From: Caldivirga maquilingensis IC-167
GTDB lineage: Archaea; Thermoproteota; Thermoprotei; Thermoproteales; Thermocladiaceae
Length of the DNA: 32,000 nt
Assembly (NCBI RefSeq): GCF_000018305.1
Contig: NC_009954.1
Coordinates: 1,140,001 to 1,172,000 of the forward strand
Reading direction: 5' to 3'
The notes under the pieces: generated by a model
Databases searched by the model: none
What the model was told of the DNA's origin: nothing
The model's input: only the letters and a program-made list of their open reading frames with translations
Position numbers and translations under genes: made by a program
Part shown: in pieces, positions 3,063-25,984 of the stretch
Numbering within the stretch: the stretch's first letter is position 1
How the letters are laid out: every line of letters begins with the position of its first letter

Positions 3063-3125
3063 TTAATTCACCTTAATTCTAGGTTTAGGTATAATCTATT
3101 TAAGCTATACTTAGCCAAATAACTG

Positions 3126-4373: not shown

Positions 4374-4431
4374 GGTACTTAAAGCCTAATGTGGGGCTAA
4401 GTTTAATAATTTATAATCCATTATCCCACTA

Positions 4432-5484: not shown

Positions 5485-5644
5485 TACTTATTCTTGACTG
5501 CTTAATTATTATATAAAAATCATAATCTACTATAGTACTTATATATTATTTATCTTAGCTGCTAAGTATTGTAAGCACTTTACTGAAGCCTAATGGAGAA
5601 AGGTTTATTAATATGATTGGTTAAAGGCGGCTTAAGAACCATTT

Positions 5645-8257
5645 ATGGATTGTACCTTTAAGGTGATTTCCGACTTAGATAAAGATCTCAGGTTCAGGAA
5701 TAGTGAAGTATGCTTAACAAATGATAATAGAATAATAGTGAGTAGTGATGGTAAGGAGGAGTCTTATCAATTAAGTGATGTGCAGAGGGTTTATGTTGAG
5801 GATGGTATAGGTATAGGTAAGCTTATCCTAGTTATGAAGAATGGTGAGGAGGTTGAGGCTGCTTACTTCACGAAGAAGCCTATTGAGGAGTTTAGGAGGT
5901 TTGCAATATTTGTTAATGGGCGTATAAACGGTAATGGGCATTATGAGGGTGTTACGTTAAGTAGGGAGAATAGGAAGCCTAACGTTAGGAGTACGTTGCT
6001 TTGGTTACTTAACTTCATGAGGCCTTACTGGCATAAGATGCTTATAGGGATTATATTATCTATAAGCATAGCAATGCTTAACCTGGTTCCACCCTACTTA
6101 CTTAAAATACTGATTGATAGCGTCTTCTTAACCAAGACCCACTCAATGAAGCTCTTCGTTAATTTAACACTAACACTAATAGGGTCATATATTGGGGTTA
6201 CGGCATTATCCATAGCCCAGAACTACATACTCAACACCGTTGGGCAGAGGGTTGTGAACGATATAAGATCCAAGGTTTTTGAGCATGTTATGAGGCTTTC
6301 AGCATCATTCATAGATAGGATGTCAACGGGTAGAATACTCTCAAGGCTAACTAATGATGCAGGCAACACTCAGTGGCTAATGGTCTGGGGCTTACCAACA
6401 CTCATAGTTAATATACTAACTCTAATAGGTATAGGTGTAATATTATTTACCATGGATGTTAAACTAGCCCTATTCGTACTACTGCCGACTCCAATAATAG
6501 CTTACATGATATATAGGTACCGTAAGAGGTCGCATAGGGTCTACCACAGGAATTGGAGGAGGAGTGCTGATGTAACCAGTGCTCTATCAGACACTATACC
6601 TAATTATATGGTTATAAAGTCCTTCGCCAAGGAGGATTATGAATCAAATAGGTTAAATGACTTACTCAATAGGCTTTATGAGTCCCAGGTTAAGGTAACT
6701 AAAATGAATGTTAGTTACTGGCCATTCCTAGGCCTACTTACATCATTATCAACAGTCATGATGTGGTGGTTTGGTGGTGAGCAGGTTATTGCAGGTACTA
6801 TTCAATTAGGTACCTTGACCGCGTTCGTATCCTACATGGCCCAGTTCTACGGACCTATAAACAACCTAAGCAACATAATACCGTTCATCCAGCAGGCTGT
6901 GACCTCGGGGGATAGGCTTAGGGAGATAATGGAGGCTGAGCCTGATGTTAAGGAACCTGAGAAGCCTAAGAGACCTGACTTGAAGGGTGATATACTGTTC
7001 AGTAATGTTTGGTTCAGTTACGATAAGTACACGCCTGTCTTAAAGAACATAAACCTGAGGATAAGGGTTGGTGAGAAGGTTGCAGTGGTTGGTAAGAGTG
7101 GTTCAGGGAAGAGTACGTTATCTAAGCTACTGCTTAGGATGTATGATGTTGACTCAGGGGAGATAAGGATAAATGGGGTTAATGTGAAGGAGATCGACCT
7201 ACAGTACCTTAGGGATAGGATAGCGTATGTGCCGCAGGAGGTGGCTTTATTCGATAGCACTGTGGCTTACAATGTGGCTTACGGTAGTGGGAGGCATGTT
7301 GAGCCTTGGGAGATCATAGCGGCTTGTAAGGCGGCTAGGATTCATGACGAGATTATGCAGTTGCCTTTAGCCTACGACACTAACCTGGGTGAGAGGGGTT
7401 CATCATTATCCGGCGGCCAGAGGCAGAGGATTTCAATTGCTAGGGCTATTATTAAGCAGCCGGATATCGTAATACTTGATGAAGCAACGTCAAACCTTGA
7501 CGTTATTAATGAGGCTGAGGTCTACAGAGCCATCATGAACCTGGCTAAGGGTAGGACTGCAATATTCGTTACTCATAGTTTCGTTGAGGTCATGAGTGCG
7601 GATAGGGTTATAGTTATGGCAAATGGGGAAATTGTAGAGGAGGGTAAGCCAAGTGAATTATTGGCTAAGAGGGGGCACTTCTACAATATGTTTAAGGATC
7701 AGCTTGAATTATTCACCGGTGAATTGAAGCTTCTTGAGAATGATGACGGTAATGGGAATGCCTTAACCCTTAGGGATTACGTTAAGGACGTAATGGTTGA
7801 GCCAGGTAAAGTTAAGGTTAAGCCAGGGAGTAGGAGGAGTCTAGTTACATTGATCGTTAATGGTGAGGTTTACAAGGATCTTAAACCAAAGTTACCGTTC
7901 CCAATATCCCAGCCTGAGTACGTCATATTCTATGATAAGGATGGTAAGGAACGCTTCATTCTGAGTAATTATAAGGCACTCGACGCTGAATCAGTTAAGC
8001 TACTTGAGACCGCAATAGCCTTGAATAACTTCAAGCCCGTAACGTTGAGTGTTAAGAGGATTGATGTTAAGGGTGATGAATTGGAGTGGCATCTAGTGAC
8101 TAACTACGGTGAGGTTGTGGTTAATACTAGGGGCAGGAGGAACGTGATGATCATGGATAGTAAGTTAACTTTAGTTGATATTCATGATAATATATATGAG
8201 ATTGACTTAAAGAGACTTGATAAGGATAGCCTTAAGCTAATAGCAGACACAGTGTGA
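5645..8257 (+). CDS. ABC exporter (fused permease + ATPase) with an extra N-terminal PH-like domain and a C-terminal DUF1854-like domain
   Basis: Walker A GKSGSGKST, Q-loop YVPQE, signature LSGGQRQR, Walker B IVILDEATS, H-loop FVTHS. A six-helix ABC_membrane-type region spans aa about 115-420. About 110 aa lie before the TMD and 180 aa after the NBD (nt 7715-8254). Confidence 0.9.
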   Translation: MDCTFKVISDLDKDLRFRNSEVCLTNDNRIIVSSDGKEESYQLSDVQRVYVEDGIGIGKLILVMKNGEEVEAAYFTKKPIEEFRRFAIFVNGRINGNGHYEGVTLSRENRKPNVRSTLLWLLNFMRPYWHKMLIGIILSISIAMLNLVPPYLLKILIDSVFLTKTHSMKLFVNLTLTLIGSYIGVTALSIAQNYILNTVGQRVVNDIRSKVFEHVMRLSASFIDRMSTGRILSRLTNDAGNTQWLMVWGLPTLIVNILTLIGIGVILFTMDVKLALFVLLPTPIIAYMIYRYRKRSHRVYHRNWRRSADVTSALSDTIPNYMVIKSFAKEDYESNRLNDLLNRLYESQVKVTKMNVSYWPFLGLLTSLSTVMMWWFGGEQVIAGTIQLGTLTAFVSYMAQFYGPINNLSNIIPFIQQAVTSGDRLREIMEAEPDVKEPEKPKRPDLKGDILFSNVWFSYDKYTPVLKNINLRIRVGEKVAVVGKSGSGKSTLSKLLLRMYDVDSGEIRINGVNVKEIDLQYLRDRIAYVPQEVALFDSTVAYNVAYGSGRHVEPWEIIAACKAARIHDEIMQLPLAYDTNLGERGSSLSGGQRQRISIARAIIKQPDIVILDEATSNLDVINEAEVYRAIMNLAKGRTAIFVTHSFVEVMSADRVIVMANGEIVEEGKPSELLAKRGHFYNMFKDQLELFTGELKLLENDDGNGNALTLRDYVKDVMVEPGKVKVKPGSRRSLVTLIVNGEVYKDLKPKLPFPISQPEYVIFYDKDGKERFILSNYKALDAESVKLLETAIALNNFKPVTLSVKRIDVKGDELEWHLVTNYGEVVVNTRGRRNVMIMDSKLTLVDIHDNIYEIDLKRLDKDSLKLIADTV

Positions 8258-8303
8258 TTTAACCACAAGTAATCACGGTGCTTTATTATAACATATTTCA
8301 ATT

Positions 8304-9005
8304 TTAAGTAGGCTTTATTATGAACCTTGCGTCCACTGCGTATGAACCTTTCCCATTCTCAAGCATTATAACTGGGTTCAAGTCTGCTTCAGAGATCTGC
8401 GGATTCTCAATCATTAGTCTGGAGAATTTAACGATTATATCCACGAGTGAGTAAATATCCCTTCTCGGCATACCCCTGTAGCCTATCATTAATTGGTAAG
8501 CCTTAGTCTCCTTAATCATGCTTAAGGCATCATCCTCAGTGATTGGGGCCACCCTCATTGAGGTATCCTTATATAACTCAGTTAATACGCCACCAATTCC
8601 AAATAGGATTACTGTACCGAATATTCTATCCCTTAAACCACCCACAATTACCTCCAGTCCCCCTTGAACCATGTGTTGAACCAGGAAGCCGAATACCCTG
8701 GCGTATGGTGCCAGGTGTTTAATGTTATTGGTCATTTCTCCGCAAGCCCTCTTAACGTCATCATCACTGTTAACGTTAAGTATCACACCTCCCACATCAG
8801 TCTTATGCATTATGTCAGGGGAAATCACCTTTATTGCCACTGGGTAACCAACCTCATTAGCGGCCTTAATGGCTTCCTCGTAATTAGACACCACCCTATA
8901 CCCAGGTGTTGGTATGCCGTATGCCTCAAGTAGCTCATATGCCTCATGATCAAGTAGCTTAAACCTACCCTCTGAGAGTGCTTTAGTAACTATATCATGG
9001 ACCAT
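8304..9005 (-). CDS. acdB: ADP-forming acetyl-CoA synthetase, beta subunit (ATP-grasp)
   Basis: At 233 aa it matches archaeal ACS beta in size and N-terminus (LLDHEAYELLEAYGIP, YPVAIKVISPDIMHKTDVGGV). It lies 1 nt downstream of the alpha-subunit gene. Confidence 0.8.
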   Translation of the reverse strand: MVHDIVTKALSEGRFKLLDHEAYELLEAYGIPTPGYRVVSNYEEAIKAANEVGYPVAIKVISPDIMHKTDVGGVILNVNSDDDVKRACGEMTNNIKHLAPYARVFGFLVQHMVQGGLEVIVGGLRDRIFGTVILFGIGGVLTELYKDTSMRVAPITEDDALSMIKETKAYQLMIGYRGMPRRDIYSLVDIIVKFSRLMIENPQISEADLNPVIMLENGKGSYAVDARFIIKPT

Positions 9006-9006
9006 A

Positions 9007-10440
9007 CTACTCCACCTCCTCCCTAAGCATCCTCTTAATCATACTGTACTGCACCAGGGCCCATAGTGCCCTAGCACCCCTATCTGGTGTTGCGTAAACT
9101 GGTATTCCATTATCCTCCAGGGCCTCATTGAACTTCTCCATCATTGCGCTACCGCCGAAGGAGACTACAACCATGGGTTTCCCATATCTTTTAGCATCAA
9201 TAATGTAGTTGACGAGGTTTGGGGTTAAGCCAGGTATCTGCATTAAGGCTACTATGAGGGCCATGTCAACGTAACTAGTGGGTAGGATTGAGTCAAGCAC
9301 TATCTTATAGTACTCATCAGTCGCACTACCGGTTACGTCAACCGGATTCCTAACTATTGCCAAGGGTGGTAGGAATTTCCTAAGCATTGATTGGATCGTT
9401 TCAGGTAATTCAGGAACTTCAAGACCAAGCATTGATAAGGTGTCCACTGCCTGAATCCCCATTCCACCGCTATCAGTAAGCACAAGCACCCTCCTACCCC
9501 TTGGTAATGGTTGCGTGGCTAAGGCCTTGGCTAAGTCAAACATCTCCCTAACACTATTAGCCTCAATTAAACCAGCCTGCCTAAAGGCACCCCTGTAGAT
9601 TTCATAGTCACCGGCTAATGCCGCAGTATGGCTTGCCACAGCACCTGCCGATGCCTTAGTTCTACCAGCCTTATAGACTATTACCGGCTTTATTTGAGTA
9701 ACCTTCTTAGCTGTTTCAAGGAATCTTAAGCCCTCGCCAGGGTACTTTAAACCCTCCATGTATATTGTAATCACCTTAACATTACTATTATTAGCCAGGT
9801 ACTCCAGTAACTCTGACTCATTAACATCAAGCTTATTACCGTAATTCACAGCTAAACCTATGCCCAGTCTCCTCCTTGATGCCCAGTCAAGTATCGCCGC
9901 TGCAACCGCCCCCGACTGGCTTATTAAGGCTATTGGGCCCTTAGGCGGCCTACCCATCCTATCCTCAGGTAGGAAGAAGGTGTCGAGGCCATTATCAGCA
10001 TTATAAACCCCTATGCAATTTGGGCCAAGAACCCTAACCTGAGTGTTCTTAACAATTTCCCTAACCTCATCCTCAAGTCTCCTACCTTCATCCCCAACCT
10101 CACTGAAGCCACCGCTGATTATTATTAATGCCTTAACATTCTTCTTCACAGCCTCAGCGGTAACCTGGGGGACCACGGGGGCTGGTACAGCTATTACTGC
10201 TAAGTCAACTTCATCATTCACCTCAGTGATGCTCTTATAGCATTTAGCACCATTTATTGAATCATACCTTGGATTAACTAGAATAACCTTCCCCTTAAAT
10301 TTACTCAGTAAATTACTCATTATGACGTAACCAACATGACCCGGCTTAGGTGTCGCCCCAATTACTGCAACCGATGATGGGTAAAACAATGCCTCAATCC
10401 CCCCTTTACTGACTGCTTCCCTGGTTTGTTCAATAACCAT
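9007..10440 (-). CDS. acdA: ADP-forming acetyl-CoA synthetase, alpha subunit (CoA-binding / succinyl-CoA-synthetase-like)
   Basis: Contains the CoA-binding segment VAVIGATPKPGHVG, GPNCIGV, SQSGA and a phosphohistidine-loop-like AVASHTAALAG. Length is 477 aa. A TATA-like TTTAAATATATT lies about 30 nt upstream. Confidence 0.85.
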   Translation of the reverse strand: MVIEQTREAVSKGGIEALFYPSSVAVIGATPKPGHVGYVIMSNLLSKFKGKVILVNPRYDSINGAKCYKSITEVNDEVDLAVIAVPAPVVPQVTAEAVKKNVKALIIISGGFSEVGDEGRRLEDEVREIVKNTQVRVLGPNCIGVYNADNGLDTFFLPEDRMGRPPKGPIALISQSGAVAAAILDWASRRRLGIGLAVNYGNKLDVNESELLEYLANNSNVKVITIYMEGLKYPGEGLRFLETAKKVTQIKPVIVYKAGRTKASAGAVASHTAALAGDYEIYRGAFRQAGLIEANSVREMFDLAKALATQPLPRGRRVLVLTDSGGMGIQAVDTLSMLGLEVPELPETIQSMLRKFLPPLAIVRNPVDVTGSATDEYYKIVLDSILPTSYVDMALIVALMQIPGLTPNLVNYIIDAKRYGKPMVVVSFGGSAMMEKFNEALEDNGIPVYATPDRGARALWALVQYSMIKRMLREEVE

Positions 10441-10538
10441 ATAGTACTAAATAGTTACTAGTGGTTTAAATATATTCTCACTCCCTTAAACACACATTAT
10501 ACCCTTCTGCGAAGGGTTTATTTAAAGGGGCAAGTATT

Positions 10539-11663
10539 ATGGCTGCAATGAGTCAGCATAGTGAGGTAATGGGTAACATTGACTATGTTGGGTTCTATAA
10601 GGATGAGTTAACGGATTACTACGTGTACAGTACCCTTGCTAGGGTTGAGAGGAATAAGGATAGAAGGAGCGCGTTAATGGAGATTGCCTCAACAGAACTT
10701 AGACATGCTAAGTATTGGGAGGCAAGGGCTAGGGAGTTAGGGTTAAGTGTTGGTGAGTTTAAGGTTCCGTGGCTTAAGATTATTTTCTACCTAACCCTAA
10801 GGCTACTCTTCGGTCTTGCAGTTGTTATTAGGCTTAGGGAGAGAGAGGAGGATGAGGCTATAGTAAGGTATGTTAACGCCAGGGATGTTGTTAAGGATCC
10901 TGCGCTTGATGAGATAATTAAGGATGAGGTAATACATGAGGATTACTTCATAGAGGAGGCAACTAAGATGAGTGAACGCTTCAATAATATTAGGGACTTC
11001 ATATACGGTATGAGTGATGGCCTAGTTGAAGTAATGGCAGCATTAGCCGGATTAGTGCCCGTTGTAGTTAACCCACTGTTAATAGCCATGGCCGGCTTAA
11101 TAGTTGGTGTTGCCGGTACAATATCAATGAGTATAGGAGCCTACATGTCTGTTAAGGCTCAGTCCGAGTTAATGAACTACAGGGTGAATAAGGTTAAGAC
11201 AGCCCTCAGGGTAATGCCCATTAGCACCGTTACCGATAAGGTACTTGACATTTTAAAAAGCAGCGGCGTACCCGAGGAGAAGGCTAGGAGTATTGCAAGG
11301 GAATTAAGCGAATATAAGGATGCGGTATCGGACATGGTTATAACAAGGGAATTAGGCTACGTGGAGTCCACTGAGAATGCCGCTAAATCAGCCGTGAGCA
11401 CCGGTGTATCCTACATAATCGGCGCTGCCTTAGTCATATTACCGTTCCCAACCATTGGATTAGTGAACAGGTATGCGGCATTATTCACGTCAATAGTACT
11501 AATGATTATAGCTACATCAGTGGCCGGTGTATTCACTGCAGCTTCAAGTAACGCTAAGATGCGTAGTGTTATTGCGAGGAATGTTGGATTAAGCCTACTT
11601 GCATTAACGGTAACATACCTAGTGGGTTCACTGGCCCATGCCCTAGGCGCCACGGTTACGTGA
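10539..11663 (+). CDS. VIT1/CCC1-family Fe/Mn transporter with an N-terminal ferritin/rubrerythrin-like domain
   Basis: The N-terminal part has EL-H and E-x-x-H helices (ELRHAKYWE, DEVIHEDYF). The C-terminal part has GMSDGLVEVMAALAG and several TM helices. The second in-frame ATG at 10548 fits the upstream TATA spacing better. Confidence 0.8.
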   Translation: MAAMSQHSEVMGNIDYVGFYKDELTDYYVYSTLARVERNKDRRSALMEIASTELRHAKYWEARARELGLSVGEFKVPWLKIIFYLTLRLLFGLAVVIRLREREEDEAIVRYVNARDVVKDPALDEIIKDEVIHEDYFIEEATKMSERFNNIRDFIYGMSDGLVEVMAALAGLVPVVVNPLLIAMAGLIVGVAGTISMSIGAYMSVKAQSELMNYRVNKVKTALRVMPISTVTDKVLDILKSSGVPEEKARSIARELSEYKDAVSDMVITRELGYVESTENAAKSAVSTGVSYIIGAALVILPFPTIGLVNRYAALFTSIVLMIIATSVAGVFTAASSNAKMRSVIARNVGLSLLALTVTYLVGSLAHALGATVT

Positions 11664-11750
11664 AGCAGGCTTAATGATTCATAACTGGAGTTATAATCCA
11701 ACATTAGGCCAGTACCCTCTTAAGGCATTTAAGTCCAAAGTTAACACCTA

Positions 11751-11774
11751 ATTAGGTTCATCAATGAACCTAAT
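11751..11774. repeat. 24-bp palindrome ATTAGGTTCAT-CA-ATGAACCTAAT (11-nt perfect arms, 2-nt centre)
   Basis: Read directly and reverse-complement checked. It lies 88 nt after the VIT1 stop and about 130 nt before the orphan gene start. Confidence 0.9.
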
Positions 11775-11870
11775 GTAGCCTCAGTCATGGATGCCGCCCA
11801 AGTGGCCTCATAAAGGTGAGTAACATCCAAGGCCTCGGCATACAGCTCTTAAGGCGTGAGGAATAGTGTC

Positions 11871-11885
11871 AAAAGCTTTAAATTC
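11871..11885 (+). promoter_or_regulatory. putative BRE/TATA element for the 11903 orphan gene (AAAAG-CTTTAAATTC)
   Basis: TTTAAA at 11877-11882 lies 21-26 nt upstream of the GTG start and is preceded by a purine-rich stretch. The spacing matches other leaderless genes in the window. Confidence 0.4.
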
Positions 11886-11902
11886 TTATATTTCACTTCT
11901 AC

Positions 11903-13525
11903 GTGACAAGCGTGATATTCGAGGTTCCCTCCTATTTACGTCTTAAGGATTCTTTGGAGGGCAATGAGCCGGTTATTGTAACCGGTCTACCTCGTAGCGG
12001 TATATCCACAGCCCTCAACTGGGTTTTAAACACCAGTGACGCCGCGGGAATTGGTAAAACAGGTTTTAAGATTATGGAGTTACCCAAAGCGTTTAATGAA
12101 GATGCTCAACTGTCTATGCTTCTTTCCAAGCTCAAGGGGCAGCTCGATCAGCATGGGGAACGTTTTATCGTTAGTGGTAGAAGCAATGTTGTAGAGTTTG
12201 TGTTCAGTAACGGGGGCAACGTACGTGGTGGCAGGGATTGGTTTATAGGCATTTATCAAGGTCTAAGGAGCTTGAGACGTAGGCTTCTTTCCCTCTCCTA
12301 TGAATGGGAGCCGGTGATTGTTGATGGTTTCCGCACATACATGTTCTCCTTCAGTAAGGAGGATGCCGTGATCTTGGCTGAACACTTGGGTGTTAGAAGG
12401 GATAAGGATGTTGATGCTGTTTTAGAGTACTCGAGCTTTAAATCACTTTTCCGCGGGGTGTATTTGCCTGGGCTCATTGTTGAGGGAACACGCAAAATAC
12501 TTAATGGTGAAGAACTCTTCGAGCAGAATGAGAGAATCGGTGAGTCGGAGCGCATGTTTGTGTTCAGTGCCCCTCTCCTTACCTCCGCAGCAGAGGCTTT
12601 TGCTGAATCACCGGTGGAAGCCGCGAGTAGTATTGCGGAAACCGTGGGTAGGTTTATTACGGGCATGGGGTTAGCTTGGGAGCTGGGTGTGCTCTTCGCT
12701 TCATTTTTTGGCTTTGGATCATTCTCAGAGAAACGTTTTGAAAAGGAACTTGTCAGCGTGGGTAATGCTTGGCGCACGCTTCCAGAAGACAAGCGTGAGG
12801 TGATTGCGAGTGTGTACGATCGCGAATTAAAACTTATCCCAGGCACCTCAAGATCGGTCTTAGATGACCTCTTCCTAGGGGTTTCAACTCTCAGATCTAA
12901 AGTTGAACAGGCGTGGTCGTATATTAGACAGGTGGAGGTGCATCAGACCTACGACACACTACTTTCTAGACGGGACGCCTCTCTTGAGCTTGTGAAAATT
13001 ATTAAACAGTCGCATACAGGGGTTCAACTCACTTCCAAGGGTCGTGGAAGTGAAGTGGCTGAGCTTACCTCGTTGATTAGAAACGCAAAGGAAGAGGTAC
13101 GCATTTGGAGACAGGGCTTTTCAGCAGTGAATGAGCTCATCCCCGTTTTTAAAGAGTTCTTAACACGGCCAAACACCGAGATAAAGGTCTTACTAAAGAT
13201 TGATCAATTCTCACTGCAAAACGCATCGCGTCTACTCGAACTAGCTAGGGTATACCCTAACCTAGAATTAGCCCACTTTGATTCATCCCTAAGAGGAGAA
13301 ATATACGATCAGCTTAAGCTACGCCTCGTAACGAAGACTCCGCGCACACCTACCACTATAGATGACCCTCGCGTCCCAGGCACCGACTCAGAGTTTTACT
13401 ATGCTGTTTGGCTCACAGAGGACAAGGAGTGGCTTGACTTCGCGCTGGGCCTCTGGGATTACTGCTGGTCTAAGGCTGTTCACGACGTCGAGTCAGTTAT
13501 ATCCACATTCAGAGAACTAATGTAA
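11903..13525 (+). CDS. orphan 540-aa protein: degenerate P-loop-like N-terminal region, one central hydrophobic helix, uncharacterised C-terminal alpha/beta region; foreign codon usage
   Basis: A long ORF with a GTG start and its own TATA. Contains PVIVTGLPRSGIST (Walker-A shape with Ile in place of Lys), EPVIVDGF (Walker-B-like) and FITGMGLAWELGVLFASFFGFGSF (aa 251-274). I recognise no family. Confidence 0.75.
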   Translation: MTSVIFEVPSYLRLKDSLEGNEPVIVTGLPRSGISTALNWVLNTSDAAGIGKTGFKIMELPKAFNEDAQLSMLLSKLKGQLDQHGERFIVSGRSNVVEFVFSNGGNVRGGRDWFIGIYQGLRSLRRRLLSLSYEWEPVIVDGFRTYMFSFSKEDAVILAEHLGVRRDKDVDAVLEYSSFKSLFRGVYLPGLIVEGTRKILNGEELFEQNERIGESERMFVFSAPLLTSAAEAFAESPVEAASSIAETVGRFITGMGLAWELGVLFASFFGFGSFSEKRFEKELVSVGNAWRTLPEDKREVIASVYDRELKLIPGTSRSVLDDLFLGVSTLRSKVEQAWSYIRQVEVHQTYDTLLSRRDASLELVKIIKQSHTGVQLTSKGRGSEVAELTSLIRNAKEEVRIWRQGFSAVNELIPVFKEFLTRPNTEIKVLLKIDQFSLQNASRLLELARVYPNLELAHFDSSLRGEIYDQLKLRLVTKTPRTPTTIDDPRVPGTDSEFYYAVWLTEDKEWLDFALGLWDYCWSKAVHDVESVISTFRELM

Positions 13526-13700
13526 ATAGAGATGCAGTTAAAGAGTAACGAAGGCCACACTGTGTAAGTGAATTTTCTTAATTGCATCGTGGTTTACACC
13601 GCTCGCCTACTTCTAATCACTCTATTTATTAAGTAGGGAAATTAAGTGTTACTGCAGTTTATCATGAGATTAAATTACTAGTGATGTGCAGTATGGTGAT

Positions 13701-14630
13701 TCACTTAATTGAGTAAAGTTCAACATCACCCTCCTTAATAATCCTAAGCAGCCTCCTCCTCTTATAGAATCTTATTATAGCGTTGGCTGTTATTAAGGCC
13801 TGTGGGTACAGGCTCCTCTTAACCCCATACTCATGTATCAGGTTATCCGCAAACTCGCAGATTGTTAATGGTCTTTCACTGAGGAGTACCTTGGCTATCC
13901 CCAGTAGCCTATTCATAGCCTCAATTGAGGCTTCAATAAATTCTTCAACTTCATTCCCCTCAAGAACCCTCTTGGAGAATGGTAGGTAATTATGCCCTGG
14001 TACAAGCATCTTAACCTTAATACTCTTAAGCGTATTCAGTGTCTGTAAGTAATCGTCAATCGATGAAACCTGTGGTATTGAATCTGTTGTACTCAACCCC
14101 CTTATGCCTAAACCCTGCACTGCGTCTGATGTAAACATTACATCATCCACAATACACACCACAGTACCTGAAGTGTGGCCGAAGGCTTCAATACACTTAA
14201 CGCCATTTAAATTAAGCATACCTCTAAAGGATTCGTGAACCACTGGTGAACCAACTTTACTCCTAAAGTCTCTTATGAAGGATTCCGTGAATTCAGGGGT
14301 GAAGCATGACCTATATTTAAGTGAGAAGAAGGAATCCACGTTAATGACATTATTGTATAAGAACCCTCTGGCAGCCTCATGCGCAATCACCCTAACACCC
14401 CTACTGGCTAAGTAACCGCTTCCACCTGCATGATCCTCATGGGGATGCGTTATTATAGCCACCTTAGGTAGCCCTATTACCTTAACCACATCCTCAATTA
14501 TGCTTGAGGTTGATGTATCGAGTAATACTCCACTATCCTTTACGTAAACCATGTTTAACTCAACATCACCGTAATACGTACCTACGAGACTAACCCTACT
14601 GGTTAAATCCCTAATAGTAACCTCAACCAT
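13701..14630 (-). CDS. metallo-beta-lactamase (MBL) fold hydrolase
   Basis: Contains the HxHxDH motif ITHPHEDHAGG, a later GHTSG, and PGH. Length is 309 aa. Confidence 0.85.
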   Translation of the reverse strand: MVEVTIRDLTSRVSLVGTYYGDVELNMVYVKDSGVLLDTSTSSIIEDVVKVIGLPKVAIITHPHEDHAGGSGYLASRGVRVIAHEAARGFLYNNVINVDSFFSLKYRSCFTPEFTESFIRDFRSKVGSPVVHESFRGMLNLNGVKCIEAFGHTSGTVVCIVDDVMFTSDAVQGLGIRGLSTTDSIPQVSSIDDYLQTLNTLKSIKVKMLVPGHNYLPFSKRVLEGNEVEEFIEASIEAMNRLLGIAKVLLSERPLTICEFADNLIHEYGVKRSLYPQALITANAIIRFYKRRRLLRIIKEGDVELYSIK

Positions 14631-14756
14631 ACCCTAAGCCTAGGTGTGATATTTAAAGTATTACACCATTAATATATTATTCCTCATTACGTAGGCGTCT
14701 CATTAAGGTTAATTATTGAAGCTGTTTAAATCATCACTAAGACTCCTGATGCGTTA

Positions 14757-15644: not shown

Positions 15645-15812
15645 AAGCCCACTTACCCTGATTAAAGTTAAACTTAACGCTCACGTTAACCCCTTCAGAG
15701 CATTAGCTTACTTCCTTAAATCCAAGGCCTTGAGTAGGTTTAAGGCATCATGTCTATTAATGATGATTACGCTTAGGCTAAACTATATTTACCACCCTGA
15801 TGTTGATTAGTT

Positions 15813-15998
15813 ATGGAGTTGGATCCAAGTGTAGCACGCTTAGCATATACGCTATCTATAATATTCCTAGTCCTGGCTCTCTTCGCATTACCCTTTGATA
15901 TTCATGTTGAGGCAGCCTTAATAATCGACCTAGTGGTAATAGGAATGTTGGCTGCATTCCTAGTATTCATCATAGTTAACGTTAAGAGGAGTTCATGA
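15813..15998 (+). CDS. small hypothetical membrane protein (two predicted TM helices)
   Basis: A 61-aa ORF with two hydrophobic stretches and no recognisable family. It is supported only by ORF length and position upstream of the rSAM genes. Confidence 0.35.
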   Translation: MELDPSVARLAYTLSIIFLVLALFALPFDIHVEAALIIDLVVIGMLAAFLVFIIVNVKRSS

Positions 15999-16090
15999 GT
16001 AGGTCCACCTTAATGTGGAAGCATCATTGTGCAGTAAGTTGGTTTAATGGGTAAACAGGCTAATATTCAGGTAATGCATTATGAGGAATT

Positions 16091-17596
16091 ATGTCCTCAA
16101 TCATGGATAATATTACTAATAAAGTCTCTGAGAGAAGTGGTACGGGTGCATTAATCGCCGCCATTAGGATGCTTAATAGGGGTGCTGTACGTCATGCATT
16201 ATCAGCCTTAATGAAGGAGGTTGAGTTTAATGGTGAGAGGAAGCCACTGCTTGAGTGGGTTATGGCGGCCTACGCTGGTAATGAACCCTGCCCAACCATT
16301 GCTCATTTGGCGTCACCGTTCTTTAAGGCTATGGTTAAATTAACCATGAGCTACTTCCATGCTGATGAGGATGAGGTTAAGCAAATACTGAGTGACCCAG
16401 CTATTAGGAGGGGTATTGTTACTACACTTAAAGGTATTGCACTATTCGGTGTAACCACGCCTCAGAAGCTTCCAGCCCCATTCTTCATAGTTTGGAACTT
16501 CACTAACCTATGTAACCTTAAGTGTATTCACTGTTACCAGAATGCTGGTAGGCCATTACCAAATGAATTAACCCTAGAGGAGAAGCTTAGGGTTGTTAAG
16601 GAGCTTGATGAGGCTGGTGTACCGGCAATAGCCTTATCAGGTGGTGAACCAACAATACACCCAGACTTCTTAACAGTATTAAATGAAATGAATAGGAGGG
16701 GTTTCTACTCCGCAGTGGCCACTAATGGGCTCATGTTCGCTAATATGGAGTTCGCTGAAAGGGTTAAGAAGGCTGGGTTAAGGTACGTGGAGATTAGTAT
16801 TGATGCTGCTGATCCAGCAGTCCACGATAAGTTTAGGGGTGTTGAGGGGGCTTGGGATAAGGCGGTTAGGGGGCTTATTAACGCCGTTAAGTTAGGCTTC
16901 AGCACTGCCTTAGCCTTCACAGTGACTAAGACTAATATTGACCAGGTTGATAAGATACTTGACCTAGCCCAGGAAATAGGCGTGAGGAGGGTTGTCTTCT
17001 TCAACTTCGTCCCAGTGGGGAGGGGTCGTGAAAACCTGGATATTGACCTATCCCCCGAGGAGAGGGAGAGTTTCATGAGGCATATTTACATGGAGATGAA
17101 GAGGAGGAACATGGAGATAGTCACCACGGCACCATACTACGGTAGGGTTGTTAACCAATTAAGTAACAATAAGGACAATGCCCCAACACACTTCGTGATC
17201 GCCAATGACCCGATAACAAGGGAATTAACAGAATTCATCGGTGGCTGTGGAGCTGGCAGAATATACGCGGCCATTGAACCAGAAGGCACTCTCACTCCAT
17301 GCGTCTTCTTACCTTACCCAGTGGGTAACCTTAGGACTAAGTCGTTCTGGGATATTTGGATGGATCCGTTTATGGAGAATTTCAGGGATAGGGGTAGGCT
17401 TAAGGGCTTCTGTGGTCAATGCCCATATAAGATGATTTGCGGTGGTTGTAGGGCTAGGGCATACGGCTACTTCGGCGATGTCCTAGCCCCGGACCCAGGC
17501 TGCATATATAATTCCAAGGAGTGGAGGAGGCTTAAGGAGGAGGCTGAGCAGTGGGCTAAGATTAAGGTCACTGCTTCTAAGCTAGGGTTTAAGTGA
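16091..17596 (+). CDS. radical SAM protein with a C-terminal SPASM domain and an N-terminal extension of about 120 aa
   Basis: The CX3CX2C motif CNLKCIHC lies at nt 16511-16534, followed by GGEPT. The SPASM cysteines are GGCGAGRIYAAIEPEGTLTPC, CGQCPYKMICGGC and PGC. There are 11 Cys in total. Confidence 0.9.
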   Translation: MSSIMDNITNKVSERSGTGALIAAIRMLNRGAVRHALSALMKEVEFNGERKPLLEWVMAAYAGNEPCPTIAHLASPFFKAMVKLTMSYFHADEDEVKQILSDPAIRRGIVTTLKGIALFGVTTPQKLPAPFFIVWNFTNLCNLKCIHCYQNAGRPLPNELTLEEKLRVVKELDEAGVPAIALSGGEPTIHPDFLTVLNEMNRRGFYSAVATNGLMFANMEFAERVKKAGLRYVEISIDAADPAVHDKFRGVEGAWDKAVRGLINAVKLGFSTALAFTVTKTNIDQVDKILDLAQEIGVRRVVFFNFVPVGRGRENLDIDLSPEERESFMRHIYMEMKRRNMEIVTTAPYYGRVVNQLSNNKDNAPTHFVIANDPITRELTEFIGGCGAGRIYAAIEPEGTLTPCVFLPYPVGNLRTKSFWDIWMDPFMENFRDRGRLKGFCGQCPYKMICGGCRARAYGYFGDVLAPDPGCIYNSKEWRRLKEEAEQWAKIKVTASKLGFK

Positions 17597-17601
17597 GGTG
17601 A
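17595..17601 (+). promoter_or_regulatory. Shine-Dalgarno GAGGTGA for the downstream rSAM gene
   Basis: GAGGTGA overlaps the TGA stop of the upstream gene and lies 4 nt before the ATG at 17606, which implies one transcript. Confidence 0.6.
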
Positions 17602-17605
17602 TTAA

Positions 17606-19018
17606 ATGAGGGTGCTGTTGGCGGTTCCACCGGGTATTGATAAAATGGAGATATATAAGGTCCTTGGACTCAGGGCACCACCACTTGGGTTAGCTTGGAT
17701 TGCAGCGGTCCTTGAGAAGGCTGGTCATGAGGTTAAGATAATTGACTCACCCACTGAGGGTATTGACTTAGGAGCCTTCATCAATGAGGTTAAGGCATGG
17801 AGCCCTGATATTGTTGGCTTAACATCATTAACCCCAACAATATATAAGGCTTATGACACAGTTAAGGCAATTAAGGAGTATGATAAGGACTTACCTGTAA
17901 TAATGGGTGGACCACATGCATCATTCATGTATGAGGAGGCTTTAAATAATGGGGTTGACGTAGTGGTTAGGGGTGAGGGTGAGTACACTACCCTGGATCT
18001 CGTTAACACCATTGAGAAGACTGGGATGAATAGGAATGGGCTTAAGGAGATTAACGGTATAGTATTCAGAAGTGGTGGCGAGATCATTAAGACGAGGGAT
18101 AGGCCACCAATAAGGAACCTGGATGAGTTACCATTTCCAGCACGCCACTTATTACCAATGGATAAATACACCATATTCGGTAAGCCAATTAAGATAATTC
18201 ACGTAATGGCCAGTCGCGGTTGCCCATATGGTTGCTCCTTCTGCTCAACCTCATACTACTGGGGTAGGTTAATTAGGTATAGATCCGCTAAGAATGTTGC
18301 AGATGAGATTGAGGACGCTGTTAATAAGTATGGTGCAAACACAATAGTCTTCACTGATGATGAATTCACCCTAGGTAAGAGGTTTGTTTACGAATTCCTA
18401 AGGGAACTGGAGGAGAGGAAACTGGACATAAACTTCTCCTGTGGTTCAAGGGTTGATACCATTGATAAGAAGATGATGAGTGAGTTATTAAGGCATGGGT
18501 GCACTGCACTGTACTTCGGTGTTGAGTCAGCAAGCCAAGACACAATAAATAGGATTGGTAAGAAAATAACCATTGAGCAGGCTATTAAGGTGTTTGAATG
18601 GGTTCATGAACTTAAGGTTAATGCAGTGGCGTCATTCGTCATAGGCTTCCCGTGGGAAACCATAGATGACATGAAGAATACTGCTAAATTCGCGGTTAAG
18701 CTTAACCCATCATACGCTCAATTCACGGTAGCTACACCATACCCTGGCACACCCCTTTACTACCAGGCTGTTAACGAGAATCTCATTGAGGATTGGAACT
18801 GGGAGCATTATACAACATTAAGGGCCATCATGAGGGGTTACAGGTTCACTAGGCAGCAGGCTGATAAGATGCTTCAATACGCCTACAGGGTCTTCTACCT
18901 AAGGGCAGGATTCCTAGCGAAGGAGCTGTTAAGCGGTAGGTTAAGCATGGTTATTACAGCTATTAAGAATTCAATTGTCCCATGGTTCATTGATAGGTTA
19001 ATGAGGCGGAGTGAGTAA
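17606..19018 (+). CDS. B12-binding-domain radical SAM protein (class B rSAM)
   Basis: The N-terminal cobalamin-binding-like Rossmann region is VLLAVPP...PPLGLAWIAAVLEKAGHEVKIID...PDIVGLTSL. The CX3CX2C motif is CPYGCSFC. Length is 470 aa. Confidence 0.9.
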   Translation: MRVLLAVPPGIDKMEIYKVLGLRAPPLGLAWIAAVLEKAGHEVKIIDSPTEGIDLGAFINEVKAWSPDIVGLTSLTPTIYKAYDTVKAIKEYDKDLPVIMGGPHASFMYEEALNNGVDVVVRGEGEYTTLDLVNTIEKTGMNRNGLKEINGIVFRSGGEIIKTRDRPPIRNLDELPFPARHLLPMDKYTIFGKPIKIIHVMASRGCPYGCSFCSTSYYWGRLIRYRSAKNVADEIEDAVNKYGANTIVFTDDEFTLGKRFVYEFLRELEERKLDINFSCGSRVDTIDKKMMSELLRHGCTALYFGVESASQDTINRIGKKITIEQAIKVFEWVHELKVNAVASFVIGFPWETIDDMKNTAKFAVKLNPSYAQFTVATPYPGTPLYYQAVNENLIEDWNWEHYTTLRAIMRGYRFTRQQADKMLQYAYRVFYLRAGFLAKELLSGRLSMVITAIKNSIVPWFIDRLMRRSE

Positions 19019-19796: not shown

Positions 19797-22334
19797 TTAA
19801 CTATGGCGCATGAGTAGTGATATTATGAGACCCATTATGATGGCTAATGCATATATTGTGAAAATATACCATGGGATTCCAAACACACCTGAGACAACGT
19901 AGACCACAATGGGGCCTACGTAAGCATCATTAAGCCACTCATTCCCAAGGTACTTAACGTAAATAATCCAGGGCCCAGCCTTATCAGTAACTATCCTTAA
20001 TACCGTTTCATTACTCACCACAGTATTAATACTTCTTACTCTTCCACTTGAATTAACCAGTATTGATGCATTAGCCCTTGTTGGTAAATTATTATTAACC
20101 TTAATTAGTATGAGCATTATTATTGAGCTGCCTGAGGCTATTGTACCATTATTAAGTACCCTAATTGATACCCTTGGATTAGCCTTAATTACCTTCACAA
20201 ACTCATTGAGGCCACATGATAGGTAATTATTGTTACCGGGCCAGTATACGGTAATATTGTATAATCCTGGGTAAGGTGGTTTATATGATTCTTGAAACTT
20301 ACCGTTAGTTACATAGGCTATGATTAATGACTTATTTACGTAGATTGGTATTTGACTAATTGGTGCAGTTACATTACCACTTATTGAGAGTTCACTCCCC
20401 ACTATGAATGATCCATTAATACTCATTCTAATTGTGCAGGGAGCCTTCAACACCATTAGTGATGCCTCAGCCACTGATGGTAAGTAATTACGGGAACCTG
20501 GGTAGTATATTGTTAAGTTAAAGTAACCTGCCTCATTAGGTTTCACATGCGTGTAACCTGTACCATTGATTACATTAATGTAACCTATGAATGATTTATT
20601 TAAGTATAGGTAAACTGAGGCTGTGATTCCTGGATTTAAGTTAACCATTACTGTTAATGAATCCCCGTACACTATGGTTGAGTTAACTAAGTAACTTATA
20701 TTGACCTTAGCCGGTGCAACAATTACCTTAGCTTGGCTAGTTATTGAGAATGATTGCGATGGGGAGTATGTTACGTACACTACGTAAACACCAGTATCAT
20801 TAGGCTTAAATGTTAATGAGGCGTAACCACTTGAATTCGTGGTTATTGAGCCTAATGCAACGTTAACCCCATTTAAGGTTACTTGGTATTGAAGGGTTTG
20901 ATTAACTATACCGTATCCCTCAGCTGTTAAGTTAACTAGCATACTGGCTAATTCCCCGTAAGTTATGTTAAGTAACTCAGGTGTAATACTCATGGTTGGC
21001 TTGAGTACGTTAAGTAGAATTATGGTGCTGTAGTAGTATGAGTATCCCCCGTAATCAACCATGATTAGAGATACGTTTAAAGGCATTGGGCCGGGTTGAA
21101 GCGCCAGTAAACCAACTTCAAATCCTCCATTACCCCTCAGGGCCACTGGGCTACCAGTAATGCTTACTGGGAACTGGGGTGATAATGGGGAGATGTACAC
21201 CTTCTCATTAACTATTGGGGCTGGTACATTAACATTAAAAACGATCCTAGAATTAACACCAAGCGGCACCGTTGAGTTAGGTGATGTAATCAATGGTACC
21301 GGTTCATACGCATTTATGCTGAATTTAACCAACCCAACAGTGCAACTACCGTACATGAATACTACTTGAGCATTATAAGATCCAGTGTCAACTATGAGGA
21401 AGCTATTACCGGTAACTTGATTATTAATCATGGTTTCCATGGTTAAGTTACTTAAGTATGAACTATAGAAGTTCACGCTATGACCAGTTACCACGGGGAT
21501 ACTTGAACCGTTAGTAACCCTTAAGGATGCTGAACCATAGGTAACGTTAATGGAGTACCATGGTCTCACTGAATTAACCTGAAACATATACGTGGAGTAA
21601 GCCTGCCCATTGAATGCTAATTGAGCTGAAACCGTACCATTCATGAATGTTAACGGTTCCCGGAACACGTACTTACCATTAATGGTAACGTTATAAGATG
21701 AGTAAACACCACCCATATTACTAACCAGGTTTAATTTAACAGGTTCAGCTGAGTAAAGTATAAGGTTTAGTATCGGTGATGAGTAAGGTATAATTACCTC
21801 AGAGTTATTACTGGGTGACGTGGTTAAGCCGCATTGAGTCAAGTATGCGTTAACTATTGTTGGTTTATACATTATTAGGTTATAGAATCTGCTTGTTGTG
21901 AAGTTCATTACACTTAAGGTAACGTTAATGGAGTAGTTACCATATGGTAGTGAGTAGACTGGTACATTAACTAATTGATAGGAACCCGCAGTGAGGTTGA
22001 GTAGAGTTGAGTATGAGTATACGTTGCCAATCCTAATACTTAGCATTGTACTCTCATTAATGGGTTCAGTGGAATTAATTATTGATGCGTTAATTAGCAG
22101 GGTGAAGTAGTTTAAGGGGGTTGACACCACGTTATTAACCGGGTACTTAACCCAATTCTCATACGTTAAGCTGATTAAATTAACACTAAGAGTAATGTTG
22201 AGCACGGGCTTAGTGTAGTTGGTTATGTGGGTTGCATTAGTTAAGCCACCGGGCGGGTTAAGCTGCGGATTAGCTACAATAGCCAGTGAAGCCATTGCAA
22301 GCACTAATATTAGTAATAGTTTCCTCATATTCAA
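19797..22334 (-). CDS. large secreted, C-terminally membrane-anchored surface glycoprotein with tandem Ig-like modules (possible S-layer-associated protein or adhesin)
   Basis: Signal-peptide-like N-terminus MNMRKLLLILVLAMASLAIVA. The C-terminal TM helix is IPWYIFTIYALAIIMGLIISLL. I hand-counted about 36 N-x-S/T sequons. The motif G-x-Y-x-[IL]-T-[IV]-Y-[WY]-P-G-x-x-N-Y recurs. Confidence 0.8.
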   Translation of the reverse strand: MNMRKLLLILVLAMASLAIVANPQLNPPGGLTNATHITNYTKPVLNITLSVNLISLTYENWVKYPVNNVVSTPLNYFTLLINASIINSTEPINESTMLSIRIGNVYSYSTLLNLTAGSYQLVNVPVYSLPYGNYSINVTLSVMNFTTSRFYNLIMYKPTIVNAYLTQCGLTTSPSNNSEVIIPYSSPILNLILYSAEPVKLNLVSNMGGVYSSYNVTINGKYVFREPLTFMNGTVSAQLAFNGQAYSTYMFQVNSVRPWYSINVTYGSASLRVTNGSSIPVVTGHSVNFYSSYLSNLTMETMINNQVTGNSFLIVDTGSYNAQVVFMYGSCTVGLVKFSINAYEPVPLITSPNSTVPLGVNSRIVFNVNVPAPIVNEKVYISPLSPQFPVSITGSPVALRGNGGFEVGLLALQPGPMPLNVSLIMVDYGGYSYYYSTIILLNVLKPTMSITPELLNITYGELASMLVNLTAEGYGIVNQTLQYQVTLNGVNVALGSITTNSSGYASLTFKPNDTGVYVVYVTYSPSQSFSITSQAKVIVAPAKVNISYLVNSTIVYGDSLTVMVNLNPGITASVYLYLNKSFIGYINVINGTGYTHVKPNEAGYFNLTIYYPGSRNYLPSVAEASLMVLKAPCTIRMSINGSFIVGSELSISGNVTAPISQIPIYVNKSLIIAYVTNGKFQESYKPPYPGLYNITVYWPGNNNYLSCGLNEFVKVIKANPRVSIRVLNNGTIASGSSIIMLILIKVNNNLPTRANASILVNSSGRVRSINTVVSNETVLRIVTDKAGPWIIYVKYLGNEWLNDAYVGPIVVYVVSGVFGIPWYIFTIYALAIIMGLIISLLMRHS

Positions 22335-23957: not shown

Positions 23958-24046
23958 CCACTTCATTAAATCTACAACCACAAAGTGCTTAAGCCCTCAT
24001 TCACTTGGCTTAATCATAGCATAAGCTAGTTTTAGCGTGATCTTGA

Positions 24047-24262
24047 TTAATTAACCCTGTATGTTCTTGAGGCGGTATCGTAGGTGAATGTGGTGAATGT
24101 TAAGCCGCCGTAAATCACGAATACTTCATTACTGGGTTTCCTATTATCTTGCTCATAGTCTATATATGTGTTGTTAACCTTAACATTGGTGATTCTATTC
24201 CTCATGATTCCTTTAGTTAAACCTAATGTGAAACTTCTTCTTGGAATGTTCATTTTACTCAC
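24047..24262 (-). CDS. small hypothetical beta-rich protein (68-71 aa)
   Basis: TTTTATAAAA (+ 24287-24296) lies about 29 nt upstream of the GTG at 24262. GGTGA lies 5-6 nt upstream of an in-frame ATG at 24253. No family recognised. Confidence 0.4.
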   Translation of the reverse strand: MSKMNIPRRSFTLGLTKGIMRNRITNVKVNNTYIDYEQDNRKPSNEVFVIYGGLTFTTFTYDTASRTYRVN

Positions 24263-24328
24263 CTCGAGTTACTCTCCCACCCTAGGTTTTATAAAACTTT
24301 CTCCTTTCAGAAAACTTAACTCATAGTT

Positions 24329-24362
24329 AATATAGGGGATTCAGTGATCAATATAGGTGATT
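24329..24362. repeat. 13-bp direct repeat AATATAGG(G/T)GATT x2 with 21-bp register
   Basis: Copies lie at 24329-24341 and 24350-24362 and match 12/13. They sit upstream of the TATA of the small minus-strand ORF. Confidence 0.7.
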
Positions 24363-24414
24363 AATTCCACAGGTATTAATGAGTCTTTTGAATTCACGTT
24401 AATTATCTTACTGA

Positions 24415-25910: not shown

Positions 25911-25984
25911 AGCGGCGTAGGGAAGCCTGGTATCCTGCGGGGCTCATAACCCCGAGGTCGGTGGTTCGAATCCACCCGCCGCTA
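25911..25984 (+). tRNA. initiator tRNA-Met (anticodon CAT), no intron, CCA not encoded
   Basis: Hand-folded cloverleaf: acceptor AGCGGCG/CGCCGCT, D arm GGGA/TCCT, anticodon arm CGGGG-CTCATAA-CCCCG (CAT at 25945-25947), T arm GGTGG-TTCGAAT-CCACC, discriminator A. The A1:U72 pair and three G:C pairs at the base of the anticodon stem mark an archaeal initiator. Confidence 0.93.

Follow-up and report, generated by a model that had tools for sequence, protein, structure and literature searches.

An intact open reading frame (ORF) of Caldivirga maquilingensis IC-167, located at 11903-13525 on the plus strand of a 32,000-nucleotide stretch of contig NC_009954.1 (positions 1,140,001 to 1,172,000; this whole stretch is called the window, and positions are counted from its first letter), was acquired horizontally and replaced a resident gene of the enolase superfamily, the MR_MLE gene, a conclusion in which we have high confidence. 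The ORF encodes a protein of 540 amino acids (aa) from a GTG start (537 aa in the annotation, from the GTG at 11912), which is 100% identical to a C. maquilingensis hypothetical protein. A foreign segment of ~1.9 kb (11783-13687, plus strand), which has no counterpart in the relatives, is delimited by breaks of homology and a tetranucleotide peak, and carries one gene with a TATA-like box, overwrote most of the MR_MLE gene between the VIT1 gene and the gene of an MBL-fold hydrolase. For the protein itself we put forward, tentatively, a dimeric membrane-associated sensor-effector fusion taking part in inter-genome conflict. Taken as a single explanation, acquisition and function would deserve slightly better than even confidence, a figure that blends the firm first part with the tentative second.

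Replacement of the MR_MLE gene between VIT1 and the MBL-fold gene

Syntenic loci were fetched by way of the VIT1 protein from Caldivirga sp. UBA161 (locus L001, ~88% nucleotide identity) and Caldivirga sp. MU80 (locus L002). Both share with the window the gene order on the left (an ABC gene, an ATP-grasp/CoA-ligase gene and VIT1) and on the right (the MBL-fold gene, a dehydrogenase gene and two radical SAM genes), and in both the VIT1-MBL interval holds, in place of the ORF, a minus-strand gene of 420 aa (UBA161) or 425 aa (MU80). The product of this gene has the MR_MLE_N and MR_MLE_C domains of the enolase superfamily (Pfam MR_MLE_C, E = 6.5e-58), and its codons are of the host type, with AGG accounting for 21 of 27 arginine codons. 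The earlier note on this DNA, drawn from the letters of the window, had read the ORF as a lone cargo gene gained by horizontal transfer relatively recently and had suggested that the VIT1-MBL interval of relatives be searched for an empty site. The acquisition is borne out by synteny together with composition; the site is not empty in UBA161 and MU80, both of which carry the MR_MLE gene there, so that the event was a replacement. A host-like orthologue at this locus in all relatives, which the note had named as one of two observations that would overturn its view, is not what the comparison gives: UBA161 and MU80 are both without an orthologue.

At base level, the homology to the UBA161 locus stops at window position 11782 and resumes at about 13688-13700. 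Window 2532-11782 aligns with L001 1-9238 at 88% identity and window 13700-14672 with L001 10645-11618 at 90% identity (blastn), which puts the size of the exchange at ~1.4 kb out (L001 9239-10644) and ~1.9 kb in (window 11783-13687). No local alignment was obtained between the foreign segment and the L001 insert on either strand, and tblastn of the ORF product against loci L001-L003 gave no significant match (best E = 0.73). The left flank (11664-11782), a spacer following VIT1 that is still homologous to the relatives, ends at the left breakpoint (...AATGTAGCCTC|). Within it, on the minus strand at 11694-11780, lies what is left of the displaced MR_MLE gene, its final 29 codons: residues 392-420 of the UBA161 protein match window 11780-11694 (tblastn, 62% identity, E = 6e-6), and residues 397-425 of the MU80 protein match the same remnant (E = 1.6e-4). 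The 239-bp spacer upstream of the ORF, which had been taken as non-coding, consequently contains the 3' remnant of a deleted gene. Since this remnant persists in the window, the MR_MLE gene must be ancestral at the site in the C. maquilingensis lineage, and the remnant and the homology break together imply the replacement of a gene, not insertion into an empty site. With it, C. maquilingensis lost the copy at this locus of a probable sugar-acid dehydratase or racemase.

As neither a recombinase nor junction repeats are recognisable, we propose that the replacement came about by illegitimate recombination or something similar. Only short chance matches were found as flanking or junction repeats, no integrase or transposase occurs among all ORFs of the window, and there is no tRNA or Rfam family near the locus, the sole tRNA of the window being tRNA-Met at 25911; the earlier reading that integrase, transposase, tRNA and terminal repeats are lacking was thus accurate. 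Among the features by which genomic islets are recognised, the ORF displays deviant composition and absence from the syntenic locus, and mobility hallmarks are missing. It resembles classical islands and single-gene acquisitions in its codon, dinucleotide and tetranucleotide deviation, its absence from congeners and its patchy spread, but differs from them in having no integrase, tRNA target, direct repeat or transposase, and in that resident DNA was deleted with a gene stub left behind. The locus is a textbook example of a compositional island, with synteny as confirmation; what is distinctive is the clean replacement without mobility hallmarks.

Codon usage and composition

The codon baseline for the host consists of the 25 other ORFs of the window (each of at least 119 aa), not of the genome. 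CGN accounts for 21 of the 39 arginine codons of the ORF at 11903-13525, versus 49 of 519 pooled over the other 25 (Fisher exact p = 7e-11), with 2 of 23 in VIT1 and 0-29% per ORF elsewhere in the window, while the AGG share of arginine codons is 0.15 versus 0.74 in the rest. For leucine, CTC reaches 0.25 versus 0.07 and TTA 0.16 versus 0.37; AAA (0.38 versus 0.16), GAA (0.42 versus 0.30) and TTT (0.53 versus 0.26) are likewise more frequent than in the rest. The leave-one-out synonymous-codon log-likelihood is -0.09 for the ORF and 0.173 +/- 0.040 for the others (z = -6.6); the CpG observed/expected ratio is 0.86 and 0.27-0.75, respectively. The strand-symmetric tetranucleotide distance has its maximum in the window at 12001-13500 (z = 3.8). 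GC content rises marginally, from 38.8-46.8% in the other ORFs to 47.6%, so that GC by itself would miss this ORF.

Nearly all of this agrees with the earlier note. Its count of CGN codons proved exact on recount, host genes are indeed dominated by AGG/AGA with VIT1 almost free of CGN, the shifts in leucine codons, AAA, GAA and TTT are all borne out by the codon fractions, and the tetranucleotide check that it proposed, run within the window, peaks on the gene. The GC contrast that it reported (42% and 56% in stretches inside the gene) shrinks over the whole ORF to a slight rise.

That the ORF is a native Caldivirga gene, its odd codons reflecting expression level, strand or amino-acid composition, is scarcely credible. 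The GC content barely exceeds that of the neighbours (47.6% versus up to 46.8%) and the 3' half of the neighbouring VIT1 gene is also CpG-rich, both of which would suit a native gene. On the other side stand the codon score, 6.6 standard deviations off the 25 neighbours, and a switch of arginine codons that is qualitative; the best match beyond the protein's own entry, which has 41% identity and comes from another phylum-level lineage; the two congeneric species with another gene at the syntenic locus; and the persisting remnant of the MR_MLE gene. Synteny effectively refutes a native origin.

Two further compositional deviations were seen in the window. In the 3' half of VIT1 (11000-11750) the CpG observed/expected ratio is likewise high (0.89-0.91 in 500-bp windows), although VIT1 has host arginine codons and 90% protein identity to its UBA161 orthologue; the rise may be a simple effect of amino-acid composition. 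The second strongest tetranucleotide deviation of the window (20251-22250, z about 3) falls on the ORF at 19797-22334 on the minus strand (845 aa, GC 38.8%, 17 arginine codons), which has a Big_3_5 Ig-like domain and is probably a surface protein of biased composition, not foreign DNA.

Relatives and donor type

A word-indexed search of 5.8 billion proteins returned only the protein itself, the sole member of its own cluster, and word-index searches, whether started from the protein or from either domain profile, gave almost only the query or members already known. An exhaustive HMMER scan of 1.84 billion representatives found 26 relatives, with full-length similarity in one family only (P0002/P0034). 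P0034, from hot-spring metagenomes, has 547 aa and 41% identity to the C. maquilingensis protein (E = 4e-107), and its contig is 95-98% identical to contigs of Marsarchaeota group 2 metagenome-assembled genomes (MAGs), e.g. GCA_003019435.1. Neither the protein nor the two-sequence alignment gave a match when scanned against IMG/VR and JGI metagenome contigs.

The P0034 gene has a GC content of 49% (as does its contig), 19 CGN among 40 arginine codons and a CpG observed/expected ratio of 0.95, a composition which essentially equals that of the Caldivirga gene. Given the 41% identity between the proteins, P0034 is evidently not the direct donor; its composition shows that the foreign codon style is what a P0034-type lineage produces, and that little amelioration has taken place since the transfer. 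The imported gene retains the codon style of a ~49% GC genome without CpG depletion.

In Marsarchaeota group 2, the P0034 gene lies between MazE-PIN and RHH-PIN toxin-antitoxin pairs (L005 213-3754), and in the reference Marsarchaeota MAGs (L017 and L019 5980-7046) just its last 70 codons are left; the family therefore shows presence/truncation polymorphism in another host too. Where the gene is complete, the PIN gene downstream of it is split by a TnpB-like (Cas12f1-like_TNB) insertion of ~1 kb. On dozens of contigs the annotation includes 63-aa and 89-aa fragments of the P0034 gene.

The N-terminal module is shared with archaeal STAND proteins

The N-terminal module (aa 10-345, 11930-12937, plus strand) was delimited by phmmer matches to the extreme N-termini of archaeal proteins of 900-1550 aa, one of them from Conexivisphaera calida, which carry downstream nSTAND3/nSTAND5-type NTPase domains followed by TPR, HEAT or other repeats. 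It consists of a small P-loop domain, a helical region, a hydrophobic helix and a closing motif (W290..LPE.KRE...Y-D306..L311.P313-G314), the last being its best conserved part, with W290, D306, L311, P313 and G314 invariant. A profile search of the PDB with this module retrieved generic P-loops only (zeta toxin, Der).

The Walker A sequence of the family has the consensus VTGxPxSGK[ST] in the alignment of the module and reads GPPRAGKTT in P0034. In the C. maquilingensis protein it is degenerate (GLPRSGIST, aa 28-36, 11984-12010): Ile34, encoded by ATA at 12002-12004, stands where every homologue covering the region has a lysine, and the GxxxxGK[ST] pattern is not matched. As the lysine is replaced by isoleucine in this copy alone, its N-terminal module has probably lost NTP hydrolysis, and the gene may be heading towards inactivation or loss. 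The hydrophobic helix (FITGMGLAWELGVLFASFFGFGSFS, aa 251-275, 12653-12727), found from Kyte-Doolittle hydropathy, reaches a 19-residue maximum of 1.56, whereas 14 of 14 relatives reach 1.8-3.2 at the same position; it is a candidate membrane anchor or hairpin. The confidence of the structural model described below is low at this helix.

The genes of STAND relatives occur in diverse contexts. The gene of P0017 (N-terminal module and STAND; L014 398-15172) follows a phage-type integrase in a defence-island-like block that reads GmrSD_N, DNA methylase, integrase, P0017, an uncharacterised protein of 702 aa and a SACS/NOV_C protein. That of P0020 (N-terminal module, STAND and TPR) is a singleton amid ribosomal and transcription genes, and P0025 is a fragmented (split) STAND gene. 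The homology with STAND NTPase immune proteins (Avs/AVAST-like; nSTAND3 and nSTAND5) extends over the N-terminal 340 aa, and at least one of the STAND relatives bearing the module, P0017, stands in a defence-island-like context. The C. maquilingensis protein differs from them in lacking both the STAND/NB-ARC-type NTPase domain and the repeat sensor, and the module itself has no Pfam match. No immunity tests on the STAND group with this module were found in the literature searched. KAP-family NTPases, which combine a P-loop domain with hydrophobic, presumably membrane-inserting helices and occur in conflict-system-like contexts, offer a resemblance as well; unlike in that family, the helix here follows the P-loop domain instead of being inserted within it, and there is no Pfam KAP_NTPase match at E <= 1.

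The C-terminal module is a PLD-fold domain closest to TrmBL2

The C-terminal module (aa 346-540, 12938-13522, plus strand) comprises a long helix followed by a domain of the phospholipase D (PLD) fold without the HKD motif. Its profile matches the archaeal chromatin protein TrmBL2 (5box) with E = 8.5e-5. A single-sequence AlphaFold2 (AF2) model was not usable (predicted local distance difference test, pLDDT, 38.6); the model obtained from an alignment of 27 rows has a pLDDT of 76.9 as a whole and above 90 in the C-terminal half, with the N-terminal module mostly at 60-90 and segments below 50. Foldseek searches of the PDB placed TrmBL2 first (5bpd, E = 9e-9, ~280 columns, the preceding long helix included), followed by NucT (6e-6, TM-target 0.67), Nuc (3e-5), poxvirus F13, FAM83 DUF1669, Zucchini and TrmB, and the N-terminal two thirds of the domain aligned with a genuine PLDc_2 protein at a probability of 82% (hhalign).

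Conservation within the domain centres on R464 and K478, which are invariant, and on H458 and D469, which are nearly so, P0034 having Phe in place of H458. The domain lacks the HxK(x)4D(x)6GSxN signature, the aligned region reading S-L-R-G-E-I-Y-D...V-T-K-T. In a register set manually against the PLDc_2 protein of locus L009, the HKD His corresponds to a variable residue and the Lys to the invariant R464, the Asp is kept (D469), and GSxN is VTKT with the invariant K478. As the HKD signature is gone, we take the domain for a PLD-like one of the TrmB/TrmBL2 type that is either non-catalytic or non-canonical. It has the same fold as the HKD phospholipase D nucleases (Nuc, NucT, Zucchini and DrmC of DISARM), a similarity to PLDc_2 and a weak match to DrmC, but the catalytic motif is absent and it resembles pseudo-PLD domains (FAM83 DUF1669, TrmB).

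The C-terminal half is alike, by profile and by structure, to the archaeal winged helix-turn-helix (wHTH) regulators and chromatin protein of the TrmB/TrmBL2 group (5box, 5bpd, 2f5t, 3qph). Of the features that define the TrmB family, the protein has the coiled-coil helix with the PLD-like domain; the N-terminal DNA-binding wHTH is missing, with the P-loop/hydrophobic module in its place, the protein falls below the Pfam TrmB/Regulator_TrmB thresholds, and it is without the second, sugar-binding subdomain of TrmB. Relatives that share the C-terminal domain are small (195-335 aa), and their N-termini are either two transmembrane helices or a weakly winged-helix-like region (weak matches to the Hop2 and RPA32 winged-helix domains, E = 0.03-0.4), through which the latter resemble TrmB in layout.

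The gene of P0003, with two transmembrane helices and the C-terminal domain, comes directly after a Prim-Pol gene in a conjugative-element-like block with a type IV secretion system pilin and a TraC-like ATPase, which adjoins methyltransferase, ResIII, UvrD and PD-(D/E)XK genes. The gene of P0004 (195 aa, the HKD-less domain only) is paired on two independent contigs (L009 3588-6235 and L010 260-2064) with a PLDc_2 gene located immediately downstream, whose product of 173 aa has the motif HAKLIVID...GSAN; the similarity of the two (hhalign probability 82%) suggests a paralogous pair of active and inactive PLD proteins, possibly forming a heterodimer. The PLDc_2 gene is followed on L009 by a gene of 468 aa of no known kind and on L010 by a gene that the contig end cuts off after 188 residues; further neighbours of P0004 on L009 encode a Dam methylase, AbiTii and ATPase_2. 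The 468-aa gene was tested as a split version of the N-terminal module and is not one. The picture from these sequences is one of modules belonging to a flexible, conflict-related part of archaeal genomes and not to a viral gene family.

Proposed function and alternatives

Scanned with the Pfam, NCBIfam and PHROG libraries, the protein gave nothing significant (best PHROG E = 0.53). PADLOC (PADLOC-DB v2) yielded one sub-threshold match, to DrmC (E = 0.018, 12.9 bits, aa 371-461), and there are no DISARM partner genes in the window. No match was found by tblastn against 50,697 phage records and 72,556 plasmids or in IMG/VR, and BFVD returned generic PLD and P-loop folds only. A literature search on TrmBL2 with the PLD fold, nSTAND3 and horizontal transfer in Caldivirga found nothing on this protein family. 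The earlier note had taken the pattern as typical of defence, toxin or virus-derived singletons and had proposed virus, plasmid and defence-system searches: the shared domains and the contexts of the relatives lend the gene a defence flavour, while a viral derivation finds no support in any of the collections searched.

In STAND immune receptors (STAND/Avs) the N-terminal position is normally that of the output domain, and in TrmB-family proteins the half composed of the helix and the PLD-like domain mediates dimerisation and ligand binding. We propose that the 540-aa protein joins two modules in the manner of archaeal conflict-system proteins. The N-terminal module, from its effector position in the STAND relatives, would be a candidate membrane-directed effector or effector-proximal switch, while the part made of STAND and repeats would have its place taken, in P0034 as in this protein, by the helix and pseudo-PLD half. 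The protein would be membrane-associated and dimerise through the helix and pseudo-PLD half. This half would serve as sensor of a ligand or nucleic acid and regulate the N-terminal module, which would act at the membrane; one protein would thus achieve what takes an NTPase switch in the STAND relatives. We infer a role in defence or conflict from the domains common to this protein and STAND NTPases and from the surroundings in which the genes of distant relatives lie. A more specific version, in which this protein and P0034 represent an undescribed single-protein immunity or abortive-infection module whose membrane-acting P-loop/hydrophobic-hairpin effector, elsewhere under a STAND NTPase-TPR sensor, is driven by a TrmB-type pseudo-PLD sensor of a ligand or nucleic acid, would be unlikely.

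Several points weigh against this proposal. The function assigned rests on domain sharing and on the contexts of relatives at 20-35% identity, and Pfam, NCBIfam, PHROGs and PADLOC are all without a significant match. The gene is placed among housekeeping genes with no defence island, and some STAND relatives are likewise singletons amid housekeeping genes. The effector label argues from position, and the N-terminal module, with a P-loop of its own, could be a second regulatory NTPase. The change of the Walker A lysine to isoleucine suggests that this copy may be inactive, the hydrophobic helix is just under the usual transmembrane threshold (1.56 versus 1.6) and modelled at low confidence, and, for the foreign origin, the host codon baseline comes from 25 genes rather than the genome.

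A possible, if somewhat unlikely, alternative is that the gene is a decaying passenger, acquired horizontally, inert in its host and persisting because the event is recent. Besides the isoleucine in place of the Walker A lysine of every homologue, the hydrophobic helix is less pronounced than in any other member, the family is prone to truncation (the 70 codons in Marsarchaeota MAGs, the fragments of 63 aa and 89 aa and the split STAND gene P0025), and the codon usage is unameliorated, from which a short residence in the host can be argued. Inertness sits less well with an ORF that is intact (540 codons versus 547 in the homologue), that keeps the other invariant residues (W290, D306, L311, P313, G314, R464, K478 and D469) and that has a plausible promoter of its own. 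The gene could otherwise be cargo left behind by a virus, plasmid or integrative element whose other parts were lost, serving the element, e.g. in exclusion or addiction; the positions of P0003 right after a Prim-Pol gene in a conjugative-element-like block, of P0017 after a phage-type integrase and of P0034 between toxin-antitoxin pairs beside a TnpB-like insertion would all fit. We regard this as improbable: the phage, plasmid, IMG/VR and BFVD collections contain nothing beyond generic PLD/P-loop folds, an integrase, att-like repeat, tRNA target or any other element gene is absent at or near the locus, and the foreign segment spans just 1.9 kb with sharp junctions.

Still less probable, and partly overlapping with the sensor-effector proposal, is an active non-canonical PLD nuclease or phosphodiesterase in the C-terminal domain, which would make the protein a membrane-tethered nuclease toxin. 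The Foldseek matches to NucT, Nuc, Zucchini and the NgoAVII R-protein, the weak DrmC match in PADLOC, the invariance of R464 and K478 and near invariance of H458 and D469, and the genuine PLDc_2 gene that accompanies P0004 on two contigs, an arrangement that hints at a heterodimer comparable to the Nuc homodimer, are what such an activity would predict. It is opposed by the absence of HxK(x)4D(x)6GSxN (variable His, Lys to Arg, VTKT for GSxN), by the replacement of H458 with Phe in the closest homologue P0034, and by the fact that the top structural and sequence match is the non-catalytic TrmBL2.

Promoter, flanks and neighbouring genes

A TATA-like box, TTTAAATT, was read from the sequence at 11877-11884 on the plus strand, 19-26 nt 5' of the GTG at 11903, which agrees with the TATA at a leaderless distance reported in the earlier note. 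Its geometry fits a leaderless or near-leaderless start at this GTG or at the annotated GTG at 11912, and by the layout of archaeal promoters it is a plausible promoter. The start at 11903 is favoured over the annotated one because the alignment to P0034 begins at codons 1-3 of the ORF. An antisense ORF at 12298-12846 (182 aa) was rejected as a true gene because the plus-strand product has conserved homologues. That the ORF at 11903-13525 is coding is supported by its full-length homologue (41% identity, E = 4e-107).

Downstream of the ORF, the foreign segment ends in a 3' untranslated tail (13526-13687, plus strand) that has no homology to the relatives; it contains no ORF of at least 25 aa, and a sigma-70/terminator scan, poorly suited to an archaeon, detected no terminator-like site in it. 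In the right flank (13688-14630), homology to the relatives (blastn) resumes before the stop of the minus-strand MBL-fold gene (13701-14630; Pfam Lactamase_B). The spacers bordering the ORF measure 239 bp and 175 bp, as had been reported; the former is not the longest of the window, since the ORF list contains spacers of 446 bp (15645-16090) and 457 bp (23958-24414).

The remaining genes of the window are housekeeping genes, among them those for an aminotransferase, arginine deiminase, an ABC exporter, ADP-forming acyl-CoA synthetase subunits, VIT1, the MBL hydrolase, a dehydrogenase, two radical SAM enzymes, S4, a nitrilase, spermidine synthase and NAD synthase. The two radical SAM genes (16091-19018, plus strand), with the 446-bp spacer on their 5' side, encode products of 501 aa, with a SPASM domain, and of 470 aa, with a B12-binding domain; both Caldivirga relatives keep both genes, which could be a peptide-modification or cofactor-maturation pair. 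The ABC exporter (5645-8257, plus strand, 870 aa; ABC_membrane and ABC_tran) is fused to a C-terminal DUF1854 and is kept in UBA161 (L001 3110-5722).

Implications

The locus provides a base-resolved and dated archaeal case in which foreign DNA replaced a gene with no recognisable mobility machinery, the donor-type codons still being intact and a stub of the enolase-superfamily gene being kept. Judged by its sequence, the protein belongs to no described family, with one module shared with TrmB/TrmBL2 and the other with archaeal STAND proteins. Two domain families were thereby delimited to which the searched Pfam, NCBIfam and PHROG libraries contain no counterpart. One is the N-terminal module of archaeal STAND NTPases, a candidate new effector; the other is an HKD-less PLD-fold domain related to TrmB/TrmBL2, which appears combined with winged-helix, transmembrane or P-loop partners, in conjugative elements and in defence-island-like neighbourhoods. 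If the N-terminal module is not an immune effector, the gene would be an ordinary orphan of horizontal origin; if it is one, it would be an addition to a very thin catalogue of archaeal-specific defence parts. Should the protein prove to be a single-protein immunity module, it would reveal a new effector domain of archaeal STAND receptors and show the TrmB sensor domain in a new role outside transcription.

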